Origin: Treponema sp.
GTDB taxonomy: Bacteria; Spirochaetota; Spirochaetia; Treponematales; Treponemataceae
Length of the DNA: 64,000 bases
Reading direction: 5' to 3'
Assembly: GCA_041855945.1 (NCBI GenBank)
Contig: JBHAFG010000007.1
Span: 9,670 to 73,669 of the forward strand
The position numbers were made by a program, and so were the translations under genes. Every line of letters starts with the position of its first letter. Within the stretch, counting starts at the first letter, position 1. Below, in pieces: positions 27 through 62,813 of this stretch. A model generated the notes under the pieces. The model had not been told where the DNA came from. It saw only the letters and a program-made list of their open reading frames with translations, and did not search any database.

Positions 27-1508
27 TTGATTCTTGCGGGAAAAACGTACATCGGAGTGTATATGCTCATTCCCGCGGTGTCGTTCCTGCTTTCGCTCAT
101 ATTGATAAAGGTAAACCACCTGCGTACAGGTTCGTGGCTTACAACAGTTGGAATTTTTGCAGGCTGTGTGATGATTGCCTTCATAACCAAAAAAACGCCA
201 AACCCCGTGGTTGTATACAGACTCGGCTGTTTCTGCGCCGTAATGATAATCCTGAACTACACAATGGCGCTGCAGCAAAGCCAGATAACAATATTCTTCA
301 TGGCGGTCATGGTTCTGATTCCTGCAAGCACATTCATCCTTTACAGCGACGCAATGGAAGAAAATCTAAGACCGTGGCTTACGGACATAGCGGTGAACAT
401 CGTGGCGGAAATTACAGCGGGTCTTGCAGTATTTTCAACCAACAGGCTGACTGAAAAAATAATCCACCATTCTGAAAACGAGCACAACAAGGCAGAAGAA
501 AGCCTTCAGAAATTCACACACGTTCTTTCGCAGACAAGGGAAGGCCTGAACGTAGGAAAAAAACTGAACGAAAGCGCGGACGCCGCCTCGGCGAGCGTGA
601 ACGAAATAAACAGAATATACAACGCCCTCATGAAGGAAACCGAGGAACTGGAAGAACAGGTTACAAGCATAAAATCTTCGGGCGAGATTGTAAACCAGAA
701 CACAATCAGAATGAACGGAACAATCCGGGAACAGAACAATTCGCTTGAAGAAATGTCGTCCGCGATAACACAGATTGCAACCAACATTTCAAACGTAAAT
801 ACAATCGCCGAAAACAGACGCCAGGGAATGCAGAACGTAACGGAAATTCTCGACAAACTTGCAAGCCTCATACAGAAACTTGTAACACAGGTAGAACAGG
901 TGCAGGAATCTTCAAACGGAATCCAGTCCTTTGTAAAGACCGTTGACTCAATCGCAGGACAGACAAACCTTCTTGCAATGAACGCTTCGATTGAATCCGC
1001 GCACGCGGGAGAGGCCGGCAAGGGATTTGGAGTAATCGCGCAGGAAATCAGGAAACTTTCCGAAGAAACCACAAAGAACGCCACGCAGATTACAAAAACG
1101 CTGAACGAAAACACGGAAGTTGTACAGGAAACAACCTCATACGTGGGAGACATCGCGCAGTCCACAAAGAAAAGCACTGAAGAAATTCGGGCGACAATAA
1201 ATTCAATGGAAGAAATCATACACGGAATCCGCGAAATGGATATTGGAACAAAGGACGTAATGCATTCCGTGAACACGATTGTAAGCCAGTCGTCTGAAAA
1301 TTCAAAAATCATCGAGGAAGTTGTAAATCAGATCGAGGCGCAGACAGAAAGCCTTGATATTGTTACAAAATCCGCCTCGCAGCTGAGGGAACACGTAGCG
1401 CAGATAAGTTCCATGATTCAGGCGATTTCCGACGCAATGGAAGACGTGCATACAAGCGCAAGGGAAAACGAGGATGTTTCCGCAAAACTGGTGGCGCTTT
1501 TAAACTGA
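27..1508 (+). CDS. methyl-accepting chemotaxis protein (reading frame stays open back to position 3, so the true start may lie upstream of the window)
   Basis: Hydrophobic multi-TM N-terminus followed by the MCP signalling hairpin motif GQTNLLAMNASIESAHAGEAGKGFGVIAQEIRKLSEET. Confidence 0.9.
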   Translation: MILAGKTYIGVYMLIPAVSFLLSLILIKVNHLRTGSWLTTVGIFAGCVMIAFITKKTPNPVVVYRLGCFCAVMIILNYTMALQQSQITIFFMAVMVLIPASTFILYSDAMEENLRPWLTDIAVNIVAEITAGLAVFSTNRLTEKIIHHSENEHNKAEESLQKFTHVLSQTREGLNVGKKLNESADAASASVNEINRIYNALMKETEELEEQVTSIKSSGEIVNQNTIRMNGTIREQNNSLEEMSSAITQIATNISNVNTIAENRRQGMQNVTEILDKLASLIQKLVTQVEQVQESSNGIQSFVKTVDSIAGQTNLLAMNASIESAHAGEAGKGFGVIAQEIRKLSEETTKNATQITKTLNENTEVVQETTSYVGDIAQSTKKSTEEIRATINSMEEIIHGIREMDIGTKDVMHSVNTIVSQSSENSKIIEEVVNQIEAQTESLDIVTKSASQLREHVAQISSMIQAISDAMEDVHTSARENEDVSAKLVALLN

Positions 1509-41854: not shown

Positions 41855-42514
41855 ATGGAAAGGAAGATGAAAATTCTGTTCGCTTGCCTTGTGTGTTTTT
41901 TGCTTTCTCAGGCGATTTTTTCTGAGGAGGCGGAAAATCAAAATCTTGCATCTCCGGTCAATACGGAAAGTGCCGAAAGTGATGAACGTAAATCGTCCAT
42001 GGGAGTCGATTTTGCGTTTGACATTTCTCCAAGCCTGGCGTTAAGACCGTATATCGCTCAGGAAGTGGCGTATAAGTTCGTCCACAAAAACGGAGTGGGG
42101 TTTCATGCGGGCTTCAGGGTGATGGAAAACCTGGCCAGGACATTGCGCGAACCGTACCTTTACATCTACCAGATTTCGGAACTGAACGTAAAGGCGTGGT
42201 ATTTACAGACTGGAGCCGGAGTTGCAGTTCTTGACCAGAATGCCTACAAAACCGAAAGTTCCAATGCCATTGAGGTGCCTTTTGTCTTTACGTTTTCCAC
42301 GGGAGCAAAGTTCGGCAACTGGAAGTGGGGCAGGGGAATTGCAAACCTTAAAATCGGGCTTGATTTTTCACCTACCATAAACATTCCAGATTCAACCGCT
42401 TCTTCCGCGGCGCAGGCTCTGGGCTCTGTTGTGGCGGCTTCCCTTCTTGTAATCTTTGACACGCCAAAACTGAATGTCGGGCTTTCGTATTATCTTCCAG
42501 CCCTGACGTGGTGA
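41855..42514 (+). CDS. small putative outer-membrane beta-barrel protein
   Basis: Start at MERKMKILFACLVCFLLSQAIFS after AAGGAGG. Alternating amphipathic pattern. C-terminal ...LPALTW. Confidence 0.45.
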   Translation: MERKMKILFACLVCFLLSQAIFSEEAENQNLASPVNTESAESDERKSSMGVDFAFDISPSLALRPYIAQEVAYKFVHKNGVGFHAGFRVMENLARTLREPYLYIYQISELNVKAWYLQTGAGVAVLDQNAYKTESSNAIEVPFVFTFSTGAKFGNWKWGRGIANLKIGLDFSPTINIPDSTASSAAQALGSVVAASLLVIFDTPKLNVGLSYYLPALTW

Positions 42515-57678: not shown

Positions 57679-60405
57679 ATGAAAAAGGCTTTTACACTTG
57701 CATTGATTGTTTTGGTACTTGCGTCCTGTTCAACATTTGAGGAGCGTAATTCTGAACGCGTTCTGGTTGGAAATGTGACTGTTAATTTGGTTTTCCCAAC
57801 AGAACGAACTGTAAGTCCAACTCTGCCAGTCGGCGTTAGTGTCGGTAATGTAGGCGAATGGACGGTGAACTTTTACACCTTGGATAAAGACGGAAAGGAA
57901 ATAGAATATACCCCTGACAACACATCCGGCACCTTAAGTTCCTCGTCATCTGCATCTTATACGCTGTCTGCAGGAGTGTATAAAATCACAGTCAGCGGAA
58001 GTTATACTTCTACAGGTGCTACACAGGGCAACTCGATAACCTACTACTACGGCGAAGCGAACAATGTAGTGGTAGGCAAGTTAAATGGCGGAAAACCTGT
58101 TTCTGTAAACATTACAGTTGGGTTGAAGAAGACAGTTGCTTCGTCGCAAGATGATAATGCAGGAACTTTAATTTGGAACATGAAAGTTGGCAAAGGACGC
58201 ATTACAGACGGCACAACAGTATACTTCTACGCTGGAGTTATTGGAAAAGATAATGACGATAAGCCAAAAGATATTTACATAAGTACAAACGAGGAACCTG
58301 TAAAATACGACCATAAATTTACGAGTTCTGATACGGAGCCAGTAAATATTGTAACTAAAGGAAACGGTAGTCTATATAATAATAAAATGGCATCGGGCTA
58401 TTATAGACTGTTTTTTAAGTATTCTTTTGATGAGGACGCTAAACCAGAAGATTACATCTACCTTGACCTGGGCGACAACTTGATAGAAATCGCGGACGGT
58501 TTAACAACCACCTATAACGCAACCATTACAATGCCGAGTTCTTCAGACCGCTCTTATTATGTTGCTTCAACAGAAAACGGTGGTAGCGCAAACAATTCAG
58601 GGCTTTTTAGATCCTATCCTACAACCTTTGCACAGGCAGTGGATAATATAGTCGCATACAAAGAAACATACAAAAAAAACACCGGTTACTGCATAGTCTT
58701 TTTGTGTGATTCTAAGGACGGTGTGCTTACAGTGCCGGAGATTGATGTTTCTAAGGTTAACGAACTATTGAGCAAAGGCATTTATTTTTTTGCGAATGTG
58801 AGTGATAAAAATGGTGCTATTCTGACCAACCCTTCTTTTTTTGGAGCTAATTTGCCAGATAGTATTTCATGGAAAGGATCTGAAAAATATAACCTTACAT
58901 TTACATCCGACAAAACACTCAAAATAAACGGCTTAAATTTTAGCAACATCGCTTCCCTTTCATTAAAAAAACGCGCAAGGCTTGTAGCAGAAAATGCAAC
59001 AGGTAGCACAGTACAAGGCGAGGGATCGACTGAAACTCTAAGCCCGGTAACCGTTACAGTTGATGACGCAAGCAATTACGGTGTAGAAAATGAACTGCAA
59101 CCGTTCTTAAAGTACAGCGTGGAATCAAATGTAACCAACGATGTATACTTTGCCTACAATTTGGAAATTGATGCAAGTGGTGAAAGTGCAGCAACCGGCT
59201 ATATGTACACAGAAAAACAGGACATAGAATCAGGTCAAACCGAAGACGACCCAACCTATGTGCGCTGTTATCCGGAGAAAGCATCTACCACGCCAACGGC
59301 GGATAGTAATACAATGCTGTGGAGTAAATCTCTTGTCAACGGTAATGCTGTCGTAAATGAAGCGTATTTGACAAGCGATGTTGCAAATTTTGATAAAAAT
59401 ACTGCAACTAATATTCTTGTGGCGGGACAAAATCTTGTAAACTGGTGTTTTGATGCTTCTGGAAGCGGTGTTTATCTGCTTATGGAAGAAAGTTCTTCTG
59501 GAGTTACATCAGGACGAAAACTTTATTTTTATGGCGAAAATGGCTCCCAAGAGTCAATCGATGTTACTGTGTATGATACTTCTTTTGATTTTGACAACAT
59601 CATGCTCGCAAATGACAATAAGTATCTTTATGTTTACTATGTACGAAACGGTTTTGCTTACATAAGCCAGTATGGTAAAGAAGATTACACAAATAATGTA
59701 AAAAATTTTCCAATGACATTTGATTTAAATGCGGCTCCAACTGTAACGGCTTTTTGTTCTGTTGGCGGTAATTTTTACATGGGAACACAAAAATATATAC
59801 AGAGTTACAAGCAGTATATAAAGATAGAAAAATATGCAACTGGTTCATCAACTGATTATAATTACACCAACACCTTATTCCAAGCAGGCGAAATTGATAT
59901 GTCGCCAAGCAAAATTTATGGCGAAAAACAGCCTAGTTCTAGTAACTACAAAGTAACGGACTTACAGATACTAGGAAGCAACCTATACGCTTTGGTCTGT
60001 GATACAGGTGGTTATTCTAGTGATAATACTACATTTGATACGATTTACAGTCGCGGTGCGCTTGTAAAGATAGACACAAACACTATGCAGTTTTCAAGGA
60101 ACGATGTATTTGGACTTTTCACCAATCAGAACATTGACGAAAATACTGCAGAAATAGTGCAGGCTTCTAATTCTGCCGACCTTTTGACAACCTTTACAGG
60201 TCCAAGACGCTTTATAGCACGCAAGCCCGAAGAACTTGTAATCGCCGACGACGGTGTTGTAAAAGATGAAAATGACGATTACAAATTAAAAGACCGCGTC
60301 GTTGTTTTTGATTTGAAGGATAGCAGTTTTACACCAACAGACTTAGAAGACATAAGTTTTAGTGTAGTAAACACAAATCCTGCATTTAGTTTCTTTGGCG
60401 AATAA
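57679..60405 (+). CDS. hypothetical large lipoprotein (909 aa), C-terminal half beta-propeller-like
   Basis: Start at MKKAFTLALIVLVLASCSTF after GGAG (the ORF-track start at 57643 overlaps the previous stop). Ser/Thr/Asn-rich Ig-like N-terminal part. Confidence 0.5.
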   Translation: MKKAFTLALIVLVLASCSTFEERNSERVLVGNVTVNLVFPTERTVSPTLPVGVSVGNVGEWTVNFYTLDKDGKEIEYTPDNTSGTLSSSSSASYTLSAGVYKITVSGSYTSTGATQGNSITYYYGEANNVVVGKLNGGKPVSVNITVGLKKTVASSQDDNAGTLIWNMKVGKGRITDGTTVYFYAGVIGKDNDDKPKDIYISTNEEPVKYDHKFTSSDTEPVNIVTKGNGSLYNNKMASGYYRLFFKYSFDEDAKPEDYIYLDLGDNLIEIADGLTTTYNATITMPSSSDRSYYVASTENGGSANNSGLFRSYPTTFAQAVDNIVAYKETYKKNTGYCIVFLCDSKDGVLTVPEIDVSKVNELLSKGIYFFANVSDKNGAILTNPSFFGANLPDSISWKGSEKYNLTFTSDKTLKINGLNFSNIASLSLKKRARLVAENATGSTVQGEGSTETLSPVTVTVDDASNYGVENELQPFLKYSVESNVTNDVYFAYNLEIDASGESAATGYMYTEKQDIESGQTEDDPTYVRCYPEKASTTPTADSNTMLWSKSLVNGNAVVNEAYLTSDVANFDKNTATNILVAGQNLVNWCFDASGSGVYLLMEESSSGVTSGRKLYFYGENGSQESIDVTVYDTSFDFDNIMLANDNKYLYVYYVRNGFAYISQYGKEDYTNNVKNFPMTFDLNAAPTVTAFCSVGGNFYMGTQKYIQSYKQYIKIEKYATGSSTDYNYTNTLFQAGEIDMSPSKIYGEKQPSSSNYKVTDLQILGSNLYALVCDTGGYSSDNTTFDTIYSRGALVKIDTNTMQFSRNDVFGLFTNQNIDENTAEIVQASNSADLLTTFTGPRRFIARKPEELVIADDGVVKDENDDYKLKDRVVVFDLKDSSFTPTDLEDISFSVVNTNPAFSFFGE

Positions 60406-60441
60406 GATTTCGCGGTAGTTTTGCGTTAGGGATTGGAAGAA

Positions 60442-60559
60442 TTGCTTGCCGTGTTTCAACACGGCAAGCAAAATGTCAAACGCACGCCATTTGTGTGCGT
60501 TTGACAGTCGGAGCAACGCGGAGTTCTGCAAAGCCCGACCCTTTGCTACTAGCAAAGGG
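60442..60559 (+). other. three consecutive perfect hairpins (12-bp, 12-bp and 9-bp stems) in 118 nt, function unknown
   Basis: Hairpin 1: TTGCTTGCCGTG-tttcaa-CACGGCAAGCAA (60442-60471). Hairpin 2: TGTCAAACGCAC-gccatttgt-GTGCGTTTGACA (60474-60506). Hairpin 3: CCCTTTGCT-act-AGCAAAGGG (60539-60559). None is followed by a T-run. Confidence 0.6.
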
Positions 60560-60592
60560 TAACGCCCAGATGTGTGTATGCTGTATTCAATA

Positions 60593-60624
60593 TGTCATCC
60601 TGAACGAAGTGAAGGATTTCTCGC
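60593..60624 (+). repeat. copy of dispersed ~27-nt element (TGTCATCCTGAACGAAGTGAAGGATTTCTCGC)
   Basis: Intergenic, upstream of the toxN promoter. Confidence 0.6.
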
Positions 60625-60687
60625 AATACAACGCGAATGCTTTATTCCTCTTGGCAATGTTTGTAATCAAATGTCTTTACGTTTTAT

Positions 60688-60716
60688 TTGACTTTTCTTG
60701 TGTATGTTAGTAGACT
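60688..60716 (+). promoter_or_regulatory. sigma70-like promoter TTGACT-N17-TAGACT upstream of the toxN locus
   Basis: tttaTTGACTtttcttgtgtatgttagTAGACTaatt. Confidence 0.45.
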
Positions 60717-60722
60717 AATTGA

Positions 60723-60814
60723 TAGAAGGTCTCCATTAACCTGCGGTTTTAGTCCGTAAAGAGATGAACTTTAAGAAAGACCGTCCATGTAATATGGGCG
60801 GTCTTGTTTTTTTT
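60723..60814 (+). ncRNA. candidate type III antitoxin RNA / leader transcript (promoter-to-terminator unit, ~92 nt, no clear tandem repeats)
   Basis: It occupies the position where ToxI/antiQ-type repeat arrays lie in known type III TA loci, bounded by the promoter above and the terminator below. I saw only a weak ~50-nt self-similarity (agaaggtctccattaa vs agaaagaccgtccatgtaa). Confidence 0.3.
60777..60814 (+). terminator. rho-independent terminator immediately upstream of the toxN RBS
   Basis: AAGACCGTCCAT-gtaat-ATGGGCGGTCTT (12 bp with one G-U pair), then TGTTTTTTTT, then GGAGGG RBS and ATG at 60824. Confidence 0.75.
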
Positions 60815-60823
60815 GGAGGGCTT

Positions 60824-61393
60824 ATGTTTTGTTTAAAGGGGAAATTAACTTTTATCAATATAAATCAAGATTATCTTAAATATTTACACGAAAGTTGTCC
60901 TGAAGTTTATTACAAACCGGTTAGTTATGCAAACAAGCCCTATTTAGGCATATTGGTGAACGAAAATAATAATCAGTATGTGATTCCTTTGTCCTCCGCC
61001 AAGGAAAAGCATAAATCTTGGAAAAATATAGAAACTGACCGTTTTTTGATATATGAAAATTGTGATAAGGCATTGCTTTCAAAAAATGCTATTTATAAAG
61101 AAAACACAGATGGTTCGGTAAAGCATATATTTTCTGTGTTGGATTTAAAGAAAATGATTCCAATAAAAGACGGTTTATATACAAAAGTTGATTTGGTTGT
61201 AAACAGCAATGACTCTATTGAAGTTAGAAATTATAAAAATTTAATGAATAAAGAATATTCTTTCTGCTTAAAAATTTTAACTTCAATAATCCAAAAGGCT
61301 AATAAACTTTACAATAAGCAAATACTTACAGGCAAGGTGATTAAATTTTGTTGTGACTTTAAACTCCTTGAGGAAAAATGCAAGAAATTTTAA
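60824..61393 (+). CDS. toxN: ToxN/AbiQ-family type III toxin (endoribonuclease, abortive-infection type)
   Basis: By-eye alignment to Pectobacterium ToxN and lactococcal AbiQ, recalled from memory. Matching blocks: YLKYL; KPYLGILV..QYVIPLSSAKEKH (vs AFIGIVL..KYLAPLTSPKKWH); DLKKMIPI (vs NLKFMIPI); GKVIKFCCDFKLLEEKCKKF (vs GKMQGTCNFSLLEEKYRDF). Confidence 0.85.
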   Translation: MFCLKGKLTFININQDYLKYLHESCPEVYYKPVSYANKPYLGILVNENNNQYVIPLSSAKEKHKSWKNIETDRFLIYENCDKALLSKNAIYKENTDGSVKHIFSVLDLKKMIPIKDGLYTKVDLVVNSNDSIEVRNYKNLMNKEYSFCLKILTSIIQKANKLYNKQILTGKVIKFCCDFKLLEEKCKKF

Positions 61394-61418
61394 TTTAAAG
61401 GTAAACATGAAAGACCGC

Positions 61419-61487
61419 TTCATTCTGAGCGAAGCCCCTGTCATCCTGACCAACGCCTGTCATCCTGAGTGCAACGAAGGATCTCCT
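61419..61487 (+). repeat. three tandem partial copies of the dispersed element (TTCATTCTGAGCGAAGCCCCTG / TCATCCTGACCAACGCCTG / TCATCCTGAGTGCAACGAAGGATCTCCT)
   Basis: Intergenic, 26 nt downstream of the toxN stop. Confidence 0.65.
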
Positions 61488-61580
61488 GTGCCTAGGCGAA
61501 ATATCTACTGCACTGCCGAGACTTGTATTTTGTAAAAAAAAGAATTTGCAAATATACGTTGTTGGGCTTACAATAATTAT

Positions 61581-62813
61581 ATGAAAAAAGTTTTCTCTTT
61601 TTTTGCAGGAATTTTATTTTTTGCGTGTTCTCTGTTTGCTGATGTTACAGACGCTTCTGAAAAAGCCTCTCCGATTTATTTTGCAGGCGTAGGTTCATCC
61701 CTGTGCTTTCCGTCTTTTTCAAAAAAGAGCGACGGTGCGTCTGGTTTTGGCGGCAGCGGTTTTATAGAAGCAGGGCTTGATTACAAAAATTTTCAGGCAG
61801 AAGCGATTCTAGGCTACACGCATCTTTCTGGCGGTAAAGGGCTTTTACAGCAAATGGACGAGGTAAAAGTCGGGCTTGGAGCAGGCTATGTATTAGACAG
61901 GCGAAACATAAAATTCATGCCGAACTTTGTTGCAGTCCGTCCGCACTTGAGCGTGTTTGCAGATTTTTACAGTGCAAAACTTTACAAGAATGTCGTATTG
62001 CAGGAGGAGGGCGTTCTTTCTGTGGCAAAGGGTGTAACTTCTGTTTTTAATGCAGGGCTTTTTGTGGACTTTCCAAACCTTTTGTATGTTGCAGGCTACA
62101 ACCTTGTGCCTAACATAGGTTTTGAAGAGTGCTTTAGGTTTGACGTGAGCGGACTTTACGCCACTCCTATTTTGACCGTGGGCTGCAGACTGTATTTTGA
62201 TAAAAAAACACCACCACCCAAACAACAAACCAGTTACACAGAGCAACAAGACAGTCGCACAGAATAACTTGCCCGTCACACAGAGCAAAGCGAAGTGCCT
62301 GTCATCCTGAGTGAAACGAAGGATCTCCCTTGCAAAATAGATTCTTCGGCTTGCCCGCTCGAAACTTCGCCTTACGGCTCGTTGCGAGTACAGAATGACA
62401 GTGTTGTGCCACAGAATGACAGCACGACAACAAATGAACTCCAACCCGAACAACTAGCCCCAACACCAACCTTTGCGCCAATCATCTTCATACCAAACGA
62501 AACCTTGCCAATCGACTTTTACAATACAACCTTGCAAAAAATCAGCGAGTTCTTACAGGCAAATCCAACTTGCACATTAAAAATCACAGGCTACGCAAGT
62601 CCGATTTTTGAGAGGCTTTCGGGCGCACGGCCGGATGACGATTATATAAAAACCCTCTCACAGCACAGGGCAGAAAGCGTAAAAAATCAACTTGAAGTTT
62701 TGGGAATCCAAAGCGAACGCCTGAACGCTCAAGGTATGGGCGGCGGCACTTACGACAGCCAAAACGACTGGCAAAACCGCAGGGTAGAATTTGAATGTGT
62801 GTTGCAAGAATAA
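61581..62813 (+). pseudogene. OmpA-family protein (N-terminal beta-barrel + linker + C-terminal OmpA/peptidoglycan-binding domain) interrupted by a single in-frame TAA at 62265-62267
   Basis: The 61581-62267 ORF has a signal peptide MKKVFSFFAGILFFACSLFA and is barrel-like. The 62295-62813 ORF is in the same frame (61581 and 62295 are both 0 mod 3), with no other stop between them. The C-terminus LKITGYASP...LSQHRAESVKNQL...NRRVEFEC is OmpA_C-like. Confidence 0.6.
62298..62329 (+). repeat. copy of dispersed ~27-nt element (CCTGTCATCCTGAGTGAAACGAAGGATCTCCC) in the OmpA-like linker; partial inverted copies (CAGAATGACAG x2) at 62391-62422
   Basis: Encodes PVILSETKDLP in the gene frame. Confidence 0.6.

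Follow-up and report, generated by a model that had tools for sequence, protein, structure and literature searches.

Here we describe a ToxN-like toxin gene and the RNA region preceding it in a stretch of 64,000 nucleotides (nt) from Treponema sp. (assembly GCA_041855945.1, contig JBHAFG010000007.1, positions 9,670 to 73,669), the whole of which was analyzed and is referred to below as the window. The locus at 60688–61393 contains, in this order, a promoter, a single 51-nt RNA unit, an intrinsic terminator, a ribosome-binding site (RBS) and the toxin gene, and their coordinates are collected in Table 1. A preliminary description, made by reading the window by eye, had recognized here a type III toxin-antitoxin layout lacking the usual tandem repeats, and the toxin profile and the promoter and terminator order confirm that layout. 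The locus was compared with related loci from other genomes, the unit was modelled and searched in viral, plasmid and metagenome collections, and the surroundings of the locus were profiled.

Table 1. Features of the locus and its surroundings in the window, and unit copies without toxin on other contigs (L numbers are handles of loci and contigs; positions without a handle are window positions)
Feature	Position	Strand	Basis or remark
Sigma-70-type promoter (-35 TTGACT 60688–60693, 17-nt spacer, -10 TAGACT 60711–60716)	60688–60716	+	scan
Single 51-nt RNA unit, proposed antitoxin (ToxI equivalent), AGAAGGUCUCCAUUAACCUGCGGUUUUAGUCCGUAAAGAGAUGAACUUUAA	60724–60774	+	conservation, covariance model
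Hairpin H1, AGGU 60727–60730 / ACCU 60739–60742, invariant 8-nt loop CUCCAUUA	60727–60742	+	covariation
Hairpin H2, GCGG 60743–60746 / CCGU 60754–60757, variable loop	60743–60757	+	covariation
Conserved single-stranded 3' segment AAAGAGAUGAACUUUAA	60758–60774	+	invariant columns
A-rich junction UUAA^GAAAG at the unit 3' end, putative toxin cleavage site (^)	60771–60779	+	comparison of loci
Intrinsic terminator (13-pair stem 60777–60805, T-run 60806–60814)	60777–60814	+	scan
RBS GGAGG, precedes ATG 60824	60815–60819	+	direct sequence reading
ToxN/AbiQ-family endoribonuclease toxin, 189 aa	60824–61393	+	Pfam, PADLOC, PDB matches
Three perfect hairpins, stems 14, 12 and 11 bp	60442–60471, 60474–60506, 60538–60560		in the gap that separates the upstream 920-aa gene from the cassette
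Dispersed element TCATYCTGA-N7-GAAGGAT, four copies	52758, 60595, 61460, 62302	+	0.1 copies expected by chance
Phage unit, 62.9 bits	L128:10833–10882	+	covariance model
Phage unit, 62.7 bits	L104:2276–2326	+	covariance model
Phage unit, 58.2 bits	L133:8382–8432	+	covariance model
Phage unit, 55.8 bits	L095:983–1035	-	covariance model
Phage unit, 50 bits	L102:7938–7986 (=L151)	-	covariance model
Phage units, two copies, 40.4 and 37 bits	L075:1004–1055 and 1171–1289	-	covariance model
Orphan bacterial units with promoter, unit and terminator, no toxin	L197:7671–7721, L233:118–168, L258:4834–4884	+, -, +	among the matches listed

The membership of the toxin in the ToxN/AbiQ family, which had been assigned by eye together with the suggestion of a profile search against PF13958, is confirmed. 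The protein matches the whole Pfam ToxN_toxin model (positions 1–159 of 159) with an E-value of 6.1e-42 and 143.9 bits over a cut-off of 25. A weaker match was given by the PADLOC AbiQ profile PDLC02352 (E 1.9e-23), ToxN and AbiQ belonging to one superfamily. The solved ToxN/AbiQ chains 4ato, 7d8o, 2xd0 and 4glk align with the protein (E 1.7e-6 for 4glk, which is AbiQ), and in the alignments with 2xd0 and 7d8o its K38, S57, S58 and K60 fall on Lys33, Thr52, Ser53 and Lys55, the catalytic residues of ToxN (PMC8860590). The motif PLSSAK/PISSAK/PLTSAK is retained by all intact homologues. No sign of CptN or TenpN membership was found, as Pfam at E up to 1 returned ToxN_toxin alone and PADLOC returned AbiQ alone, and an exact-sequence look-up found no identical toxin sequence on record. 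All homologues share the start codon position (M/V/L-F-x-L-K at window 60824). A 209-aa open reading frame (ORF) beginning at 60764 was also considered as the gene start and was rejected because its extra codons would cross the terminator and the RNA unit; the homologue starts and the variable leader length also contradict it.

Relatives of the toxin were scanned with one genome per species, which gave 39 loci, most of the full-length ones at 58–78% identity, and promoter and terminator placement was compared in the 36 loci with complete upstream sequence. The 39 loci come nearly all from metagenome-assembled genomes (MAGs) of gut or rumen Treponema or spirochaetes, and two are from cultured isolates, both with a single unit: Treponema zioleckii kT3 (L002) and Treponema sp. 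JC4 (L006). The similarity found by blastn between the window and its relatives begins at 60711 or 60724 and ends at about 61388, and no neighbour genes or synteny around the cassette were found to be shared with them. Judged from these alignments, the conserved entity is a cassette of about 700 bp with promoter, 51-nt unit, terminator and toxin.

The tandem repeats typical of type III loci are missing upstream of the toxin, as the preliminary description had stated. Tandem Repeats Finder (TRF) at a minimum score of 30 reported none in this region, a repeat finder with 6-nt seeds gave nothing beyond one 10-nt pair, and in a gapped local self-alignment of 60405–60823, the relaxed repeat search that had been advised, the best score was 18 against 17.7 +/- 1.9 for shuffled sequences. 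The weak self-similarity of about 50 nt that had been described for the same region thus scores no better than shuffles.

The unit was found by comparison. The compared loci share a near-invariant block, AGAAGGTCTCCATTAACC-(hairpin)-AAAGAGATGAAC-TTTAA, within the last 200 nt before the toxin start codon, and from 53 distinct units an alignment and a covariance model were built, the E-values of which are rough. The model finds 60724–60774 in the window with 75.5 bits (E 6e-20), and an unfiltered scan of both strands of the 64 kb found no second copy, nothing else being better than E = 1.5. The unit is present in the window but is unrecognizable from a single sequence. Within the cassette it is the most conserved part: pairwise comparison of loci whose toxin genes diverge by over 10% gives mean identities of 0.90 (unit), 0.71 (toxin coding sequence), 0.67 (terminator region) and 0.60 (promoter region). 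The non-coding unit is under stronger constraint than the toxin protein.

Aligning the leader with orthologous loci, as had been suggested for the detection of covariation or a pseudoknot, supported two hairpins in the unit. H1 is paired in 100% of the alignment cells, with its outer pair present as A-U (42), U-A (6), G-C (2) and G-U (3), and its inner pair carries one double change from U-A to G-C, in L075. In H2 the three core pairs form in 100% of the 53 distinct units, and double changes at them number 20, 9 and 6. Taken over both hairpins, pairing holds in 90.6% of the cells; column shuffles give 80.4%, none of 500 reaching the observed value; the double-change cells number 61 against 17 expected, and if the partner strand is slid by 1–3 columns the paired fraction becomes 32–50%. 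A pseudoknot between GAG (60761–60763) and CUC in the H1 loop (60731–60733) is possible, and its columns are invariant, so covariation is uninformative on it. The outer helix GUCUC:GAGAU (columns 6–10/40–44), which appears in the minimum free energy fold of the single sequence, was dropped in favour of H1 (columns 4–7/16–19) because the sole variant in column 7 (L075) breaks it and yet is compensated in H1, and because pair 4:19 covaries. A search of 60000–62000 against Rfam with E up to 10 gave only matches at chance level, with no family that fits.

The promoter reported earlier was found again by scan. The match by itself is at chance level (5 found against 4.8 expected in the region), and its placement is conserved: TTGACN-16/17-TAnnnT is present in 36 of 36 loci, and its -10 box ends 6–9 nt before the first unit (7 nt in the window). 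From this conserved placement transcription should begin at the 5' end of the unit, which standard promoter geometry would put at about 60722–60724. The strong terminator that had been reported directly before the toxin RBS was likewise confirmed by scan, and each of the 36 loci has a terminator between unit and toxin, the fold energy of which ranges from -12 to -21 kcal/mol. The distance from the unit end to the start codon is 44–58 nt and is made up of terminator and RBS. In the window, the fold of 60724–60818 has -29.3 kcal/mol (z -3.3). An antiterminator formed by GGUCU of the unit and AGACC of the terminator was considered and rejected, as the terminator arms vary between clades.

At the end of the unit every locus has UUAA followed by (A)G(A/C)A, whether a second unit or the terminator comes next. 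The ToxN enzymes are known to cut at A-rich repeat boundaries (AA^AU, GAA^AU and AAA^AA; PMC8860590), so the junction at 60771–60779 is likely the processing site, with the exact cut placed by analogy.

The unit occurs once in the window and in 25 relatives. In 10 further relatives (L014, L017, L025–L030, L033 and L035) two units stand head to tail with no spacer and a period of 51–53 nt, and the same arrangement occurs in several metagenome contigs among the matches listed and in the GenBank record MT837915.1. Because these tandem pairs match the canonical type III arrangement, we take the unit as the equivalent of ToxI. Of the features by which ToxIN loci are known, a promoter at the RNA start and a terminator directly upstream of the toxin are both present in the window; the tandem array, published with 1.9–5.6 copies, is absent from the window and present in the 10 relatives that carry the same unit. 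Assembly collapse of an array to a single unit is unlikely because the repeat is shorter than a sequencing read. In a neighbour-joining tree of the toxins, made without support values, the two-unit loci are basal and paraphyletic and the one-unit loci fall in at least two groups, which tentatively suggests repeated loss of a unit.

The two units of a pair differ. Every two-unit locus has one unit with the CGG/CCG-type H2 stem, as in all single-unit loci, and the other unit has an H2 stem of UGAU/AUCA, UGGC/GCCA or AUGAUU/AAUCAU (for example L017:2852–2952, L026:2800–2900 and L028:2843–2947). Clades differ in whether the CGG-type unit comes first or second, and therefore the two units are old and non-equivalent. 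Some of the MAGs carrying the cassette are labelled Paratractidigestivibacter, Desulfovibrionaceae, Clostridiales, Eubacterium and Clostridia (L011, L026, L028, L029 and L030), and MT837915.1 is an 'unverified bacteriophage' scaffold from human faeces. The non-spirochaete labels may be due to horizontal transfer of the 700-bp cassette or to mis-binning.

The terminator regions of one-unit loci are more stable, with a mean of -18.5 kcal/mol (n=26) against -14.0 kcal/mol in two-unit loci (n=10); in statistics uncorrected for phylogeny, the Mann-Whitney p is 1.7e-4, or 0.004 with one locus per clade. The stronger terminators of one-unit loci may compensate for the halved antitoxin dose.

The toxins beside single units are under purifying selection. 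The window and 23 of its 25 single-unit relatives have intact toxin ORFs of 189–200 aa. Among these toxins the median ratio of nonsynonymous to synonymous substitution rates (dN/dS, Nei-Gojobori method) is 0.115 over the 62 unsaturated pairs, many dS values being saturated, and the pair of window and L006 gives 0.144. Decayed loci were also met. L038 (2896–3113) and L039 (2900–3060) have truncated toxins, in L037 (3094–3411) a deletion fuses the 5' part of the unit to about toxin codon 20, and in L189/L213/L255, among the matches listed, unit, terminator and RBS are kept and the toxin is reduced to a stub. All four cases lose the toxin and keep the RNA or part of it, the order of loss that one would expect of an RNA serving as the antidote.

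Copies of the unit without toxin were searched on viral contigs of IMG/VR with a covariance model made from toxin-linked units only. A scan of viral and metagenome collections for the exact 14-mer GGTCTCCATTAACC gave mostly chance matches, and true units were filtered with a longer pattern. Complete units with scores of 37–63 bits and compensatory hairpin changes were found on IMG/VR viral contigs, five of which are 138–217 kb long. The copies sit in ORF-free stretches (checked in L075, L095, L102, L104 and L128) with flanks that are unrelated between contigs. No ToxN-like ORF lies near them in the stretches examined, there is no close relative of the toxin anywhere in IMG/VR, and PLSDB plasmids contain no unit. 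In the copy at L075:1171–1289 a G+C-rich insert of about 65 nt separates H2 from the 3' segment, with GGGUCUCCAUUAACC and GAAGAGAUGAAC kept, a hint that these conserved segments work jointly, via a pseudoknot or a shared protein contact. The second unit of that contig lies 115 nt downstream of this copy. On the orphan bacterial units (L197, L233 and L258) the next gene is on the opposite strand, and such an orphan antitoxin could be either a remnant or an anti-addiction element. Rfam at its gathering thresholds gave nothing for the phage or orphan unit copies. The toxin-less copies fit an RNA that would act in trans, and those on phages are candidate natural decoys for the antitoxin.

Taken together, we consider it probable that 60688–61393 is a self-contained type III toxin-antitoxin cassette of the ToxIN family, about 700 bp long, with a one-unit RNA antitoxin. 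The preliminary description had named a single-unit antitoxin, an antitoxin encoded elsewhere and a decaying toxin as possible explanations, and the first of these is now favoured by a unit which is single in the window and 25 relatives and paired in 10. In the mechanism we propose, a constitutive promoter would start transcription within 0–2 nt of the first base of the 51-nt RNA (60724–60774), and most transcripts would end at the terminator (60777–60814), giving an RNA of about 90–95 nt. A minority would read through and allow the ToxN-type endoribonuclease to be translated. The toxin would bind the unit, probably cut it at UUAA^GAA, shed the terminator hairpin and stay attached to the cleaved RNA, the two forming an inactive complex. 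Once transcription stops, as it may on phage infection, the labile RNA would decay and the freed toxin would cleave cellular and phage RNA, with abortive infection or addiction as the outcome. As each transcript has a single unit, terminator efficiency alone, and not the repeat number, would fix how far the antitoxin exceeds the toxin. Transcription start, cleavage site, neutralization, stoichiometry and phage defence are all inferred here from the sequence.

Several points weigh against a functional one-unit antitoxin. For this clade the support is sequence inference throughout, and most comparison loci come from MAGs. The toxin tree has no support values, many of the dS values behind the selection estimate are saturated, and the terminator statistics are uncorrected for phylogeny. 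The pseudoknot found in every solved type III antitoxin stays a candidate here, since its pairs are invariant, and the search for further unit copies spans 64 kb of this genome. Published experiments also speak for repetition: TenpI as a single repeat had no antitoxic activity (PMC3401426), no fewer than 1.8 repeats were required in antiQ, a construct with 0.8 repeat being inviable (PMC5086642), and ToxI was reported to need 2.5 repeats in one assay (PMC5086642). On the other side, genetic studies led to the prediction that every 36-nt repeat of ToxI is able to inhibit ToxN (PMC3401426).

The antitoxin could instead be the whole unprocessed transcript of about 95 nt, unit and terminator hairpin together, which would still be a one-unit antitoxin, acting as another RNA species and possibly in another complex geometry. 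A single unit at the transcription start needs no 5' processing, unit and terminator fold stably, and AbiF/RCd22 provides the precedent of an unprocessed RNA antitoxin with intact motifs (bioRxiv 10.1101/2025.04.15.648962). We consider this unlikely, as the UUAA^(A)G junction is kept between units and after the last one as expected of a cleavage site, the toxin retains all catalytic residues, and the cleaved 3' end occupies the active site in every solved ToxIN complex (PMC8860590). The position of the unit in the 5' leader, directly before the terminator, would also suit a cis-acting leader which tunes terminator read-through or toxin translation, with the true antitoxin, RNA or protein, elsewhere in the genome. 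The genome search was limited to 64 kb, and within it the covariance model has one match, so that the idea of an antitoxin encoded elsewhere is unsupported over that span. A cis-acting leader is made improbable by the tandem duplication of the unit in 10 relatives, as is usual for type III antitoxins, and by the terminator, with which no conserved alternative pairing was seen and whose arms differ between clades. Moreover, the 700-bp cassette moves among unrelated neighbours and a distant partner would be lost on transfer, and the toxin-less phage copies are unexplained by a cis-regulator of toxN.

The basal place of the two-unit loci in the toxin tree and the existence of decayed versions (L037, L038, L039 and L189/L213/L255) could further be read as signs that an ancestral two-unit array has lost a unit and that the toxin in the window is inactive, poorly expressed or being lost. 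This is the least credible of the explanations, and the decaying toxin of the preliminary description is contradicted by intact ORFs, catalytic residues and a dN/dS of about 0.12. The window toxin is full length with K38, S57, S58 and K60, there are 24 single-unit loci with intact toxins across 63–78% identity under the same dN/dS, the unit is more conserved than the toxin gene, and in decayed loci it is the toxin that goes and the RNA that stays.

In the surroundings of the cassette, the three perfect hairpins reported upstream of it are real, and the window has no other perfect hairpin whose stem reaches 11 bp with a loop of up to 10 nt. They are close to unique in sequence, their arms having single one-mismatch matches at 42012 and 62023, and no T-run follows any of them. 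They lie outside the region conserved with the relatives and so are not part of the system. The dispersed element, of which one copy had been reported near the cassette, is real as well, with four copies in the window instead of one. The copies at 60595 and 61460 bracket the cassette, and 2.5 partial 19-nt repeats (61420–61469) precede the latter. A tie of this element to the cassette was rejected, as a copy is nearby in only 1 of 35 related loci, and the element thus belongs to this genome rather than to the cassette. Possibly it marks a hotspot for insertions.

The value of these data is as follows. If one unit is a common and selected state, repetition would be a dosage device and probably not a mechanistic requirement, and searches based on repeats would under-count such defence systems. 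The reference survey kept only loci with an array detected by TRF and dropped the rest (PMC3401426), and this is why the repeat numbers in its catalogue start at 1.9; its toxIN family has repeats of 31–62 nt in 1.9–5.6 copies (PMC3401426), and a review calls the repeats 'a key feature' (PMC5086642). Full-text searching of a limited literature library turned up no natural type III locus described with a single unit. What is new is thus the lack of an array, as the 51-nt length is within the known range and the two-unit members of the clade would already count as ordinary toxIN loci. A promoter-defined 51-nt RNA with one toxin would be a minimal natural model for recognition, processing and assembly, and the covariance model of the unit can be used as a direct finder for such loci and for toxin-less phage copies with a possible role in counter-defence. 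As a tentative picture, possible rather than likely, a whole clade of ToxIN systems from gut and rumen spirochaetes would run on a one-unit antitoxin, with its 5' end made by the promoter and its dose set by the terminator alone, and the phage copies would be decoys which disarm these systems. If that is true, an arms race at the RNA level is visible directly in metagenomes, and many 'orphan' ToxN genes dropped by repeat-based surveys are complete systems.

Among known systems, the ToxIN of Pectobacterium atrosepticum and Escherichia coli (2xd0/2xdd, 7d8o) is like the window locus in its PF13958 toxin, in the catalytic Lys/Thr(Ser)/Ser/Lys, in the order of promoter, RNA, terminator and toxin, and in the A-rich unit boundary. 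The Pectobacterium ToxI has 5.5 copies of 36 nt and the E. coli clusters have 3–5.6 copies (PMC8860590), whereas the window has one 51-nt unit, which neither resembles ToxI in sequence nor matches an Rfam family. ToxI has its 5' end made by cleavage, whereas that of the window unit would be set by the promoter, and the pseudoknot of the window is a candidate only. The ToxIN of Bacillus thuringiensis (4ato) and the AbiQ/antiQ of Lactococcus lactis (4glk) are the best PDB/PADLOC matches to the window toxin and belong to hosts of low G+C content with short arrays, of 2.9 units of 34 nt and 2.8 units of 35 nt respectively, compared with about one unit in the clade of the window. CptIN and TenpIN have units of 45 and about 50 nt, similar in length to that of the window, in about 2 repeats and with different toxin families. 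Closest are the two-unit relatives, which have the same unit, promoter placement, terminator and toxin (58–67% amino-acid identity) and would pass a tandem-repeat criterion; they differ in having two diverged units with compensatory H2 changes and, on average, weaker terminators.

For the copies on phages the analogue is the pseudo-ToxI of phage PhiTE (PMC3475682), an intergenic, toxin-less mimic of ToxI on a 142-kb phage, which the orphan units on contigs of 138–217 kb resemble. Wild-type PhiTE has 1.5 DNA repeats and no full RNA unit, so that expansion is needed (PMC3475682), whereas the phage copies found here are complete. In AbiF/RCd22 of Clostridioides difficile an RNA antitoxin also lies upstream of the toxin with a terminator between them. 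Its toxin is unrelated (Abi_2/AbiD/F family) and RCd22 carries two motifs, but the RNA is apparently unprocessed, and therefore control of the type III kind does not need the cleavage of an array.

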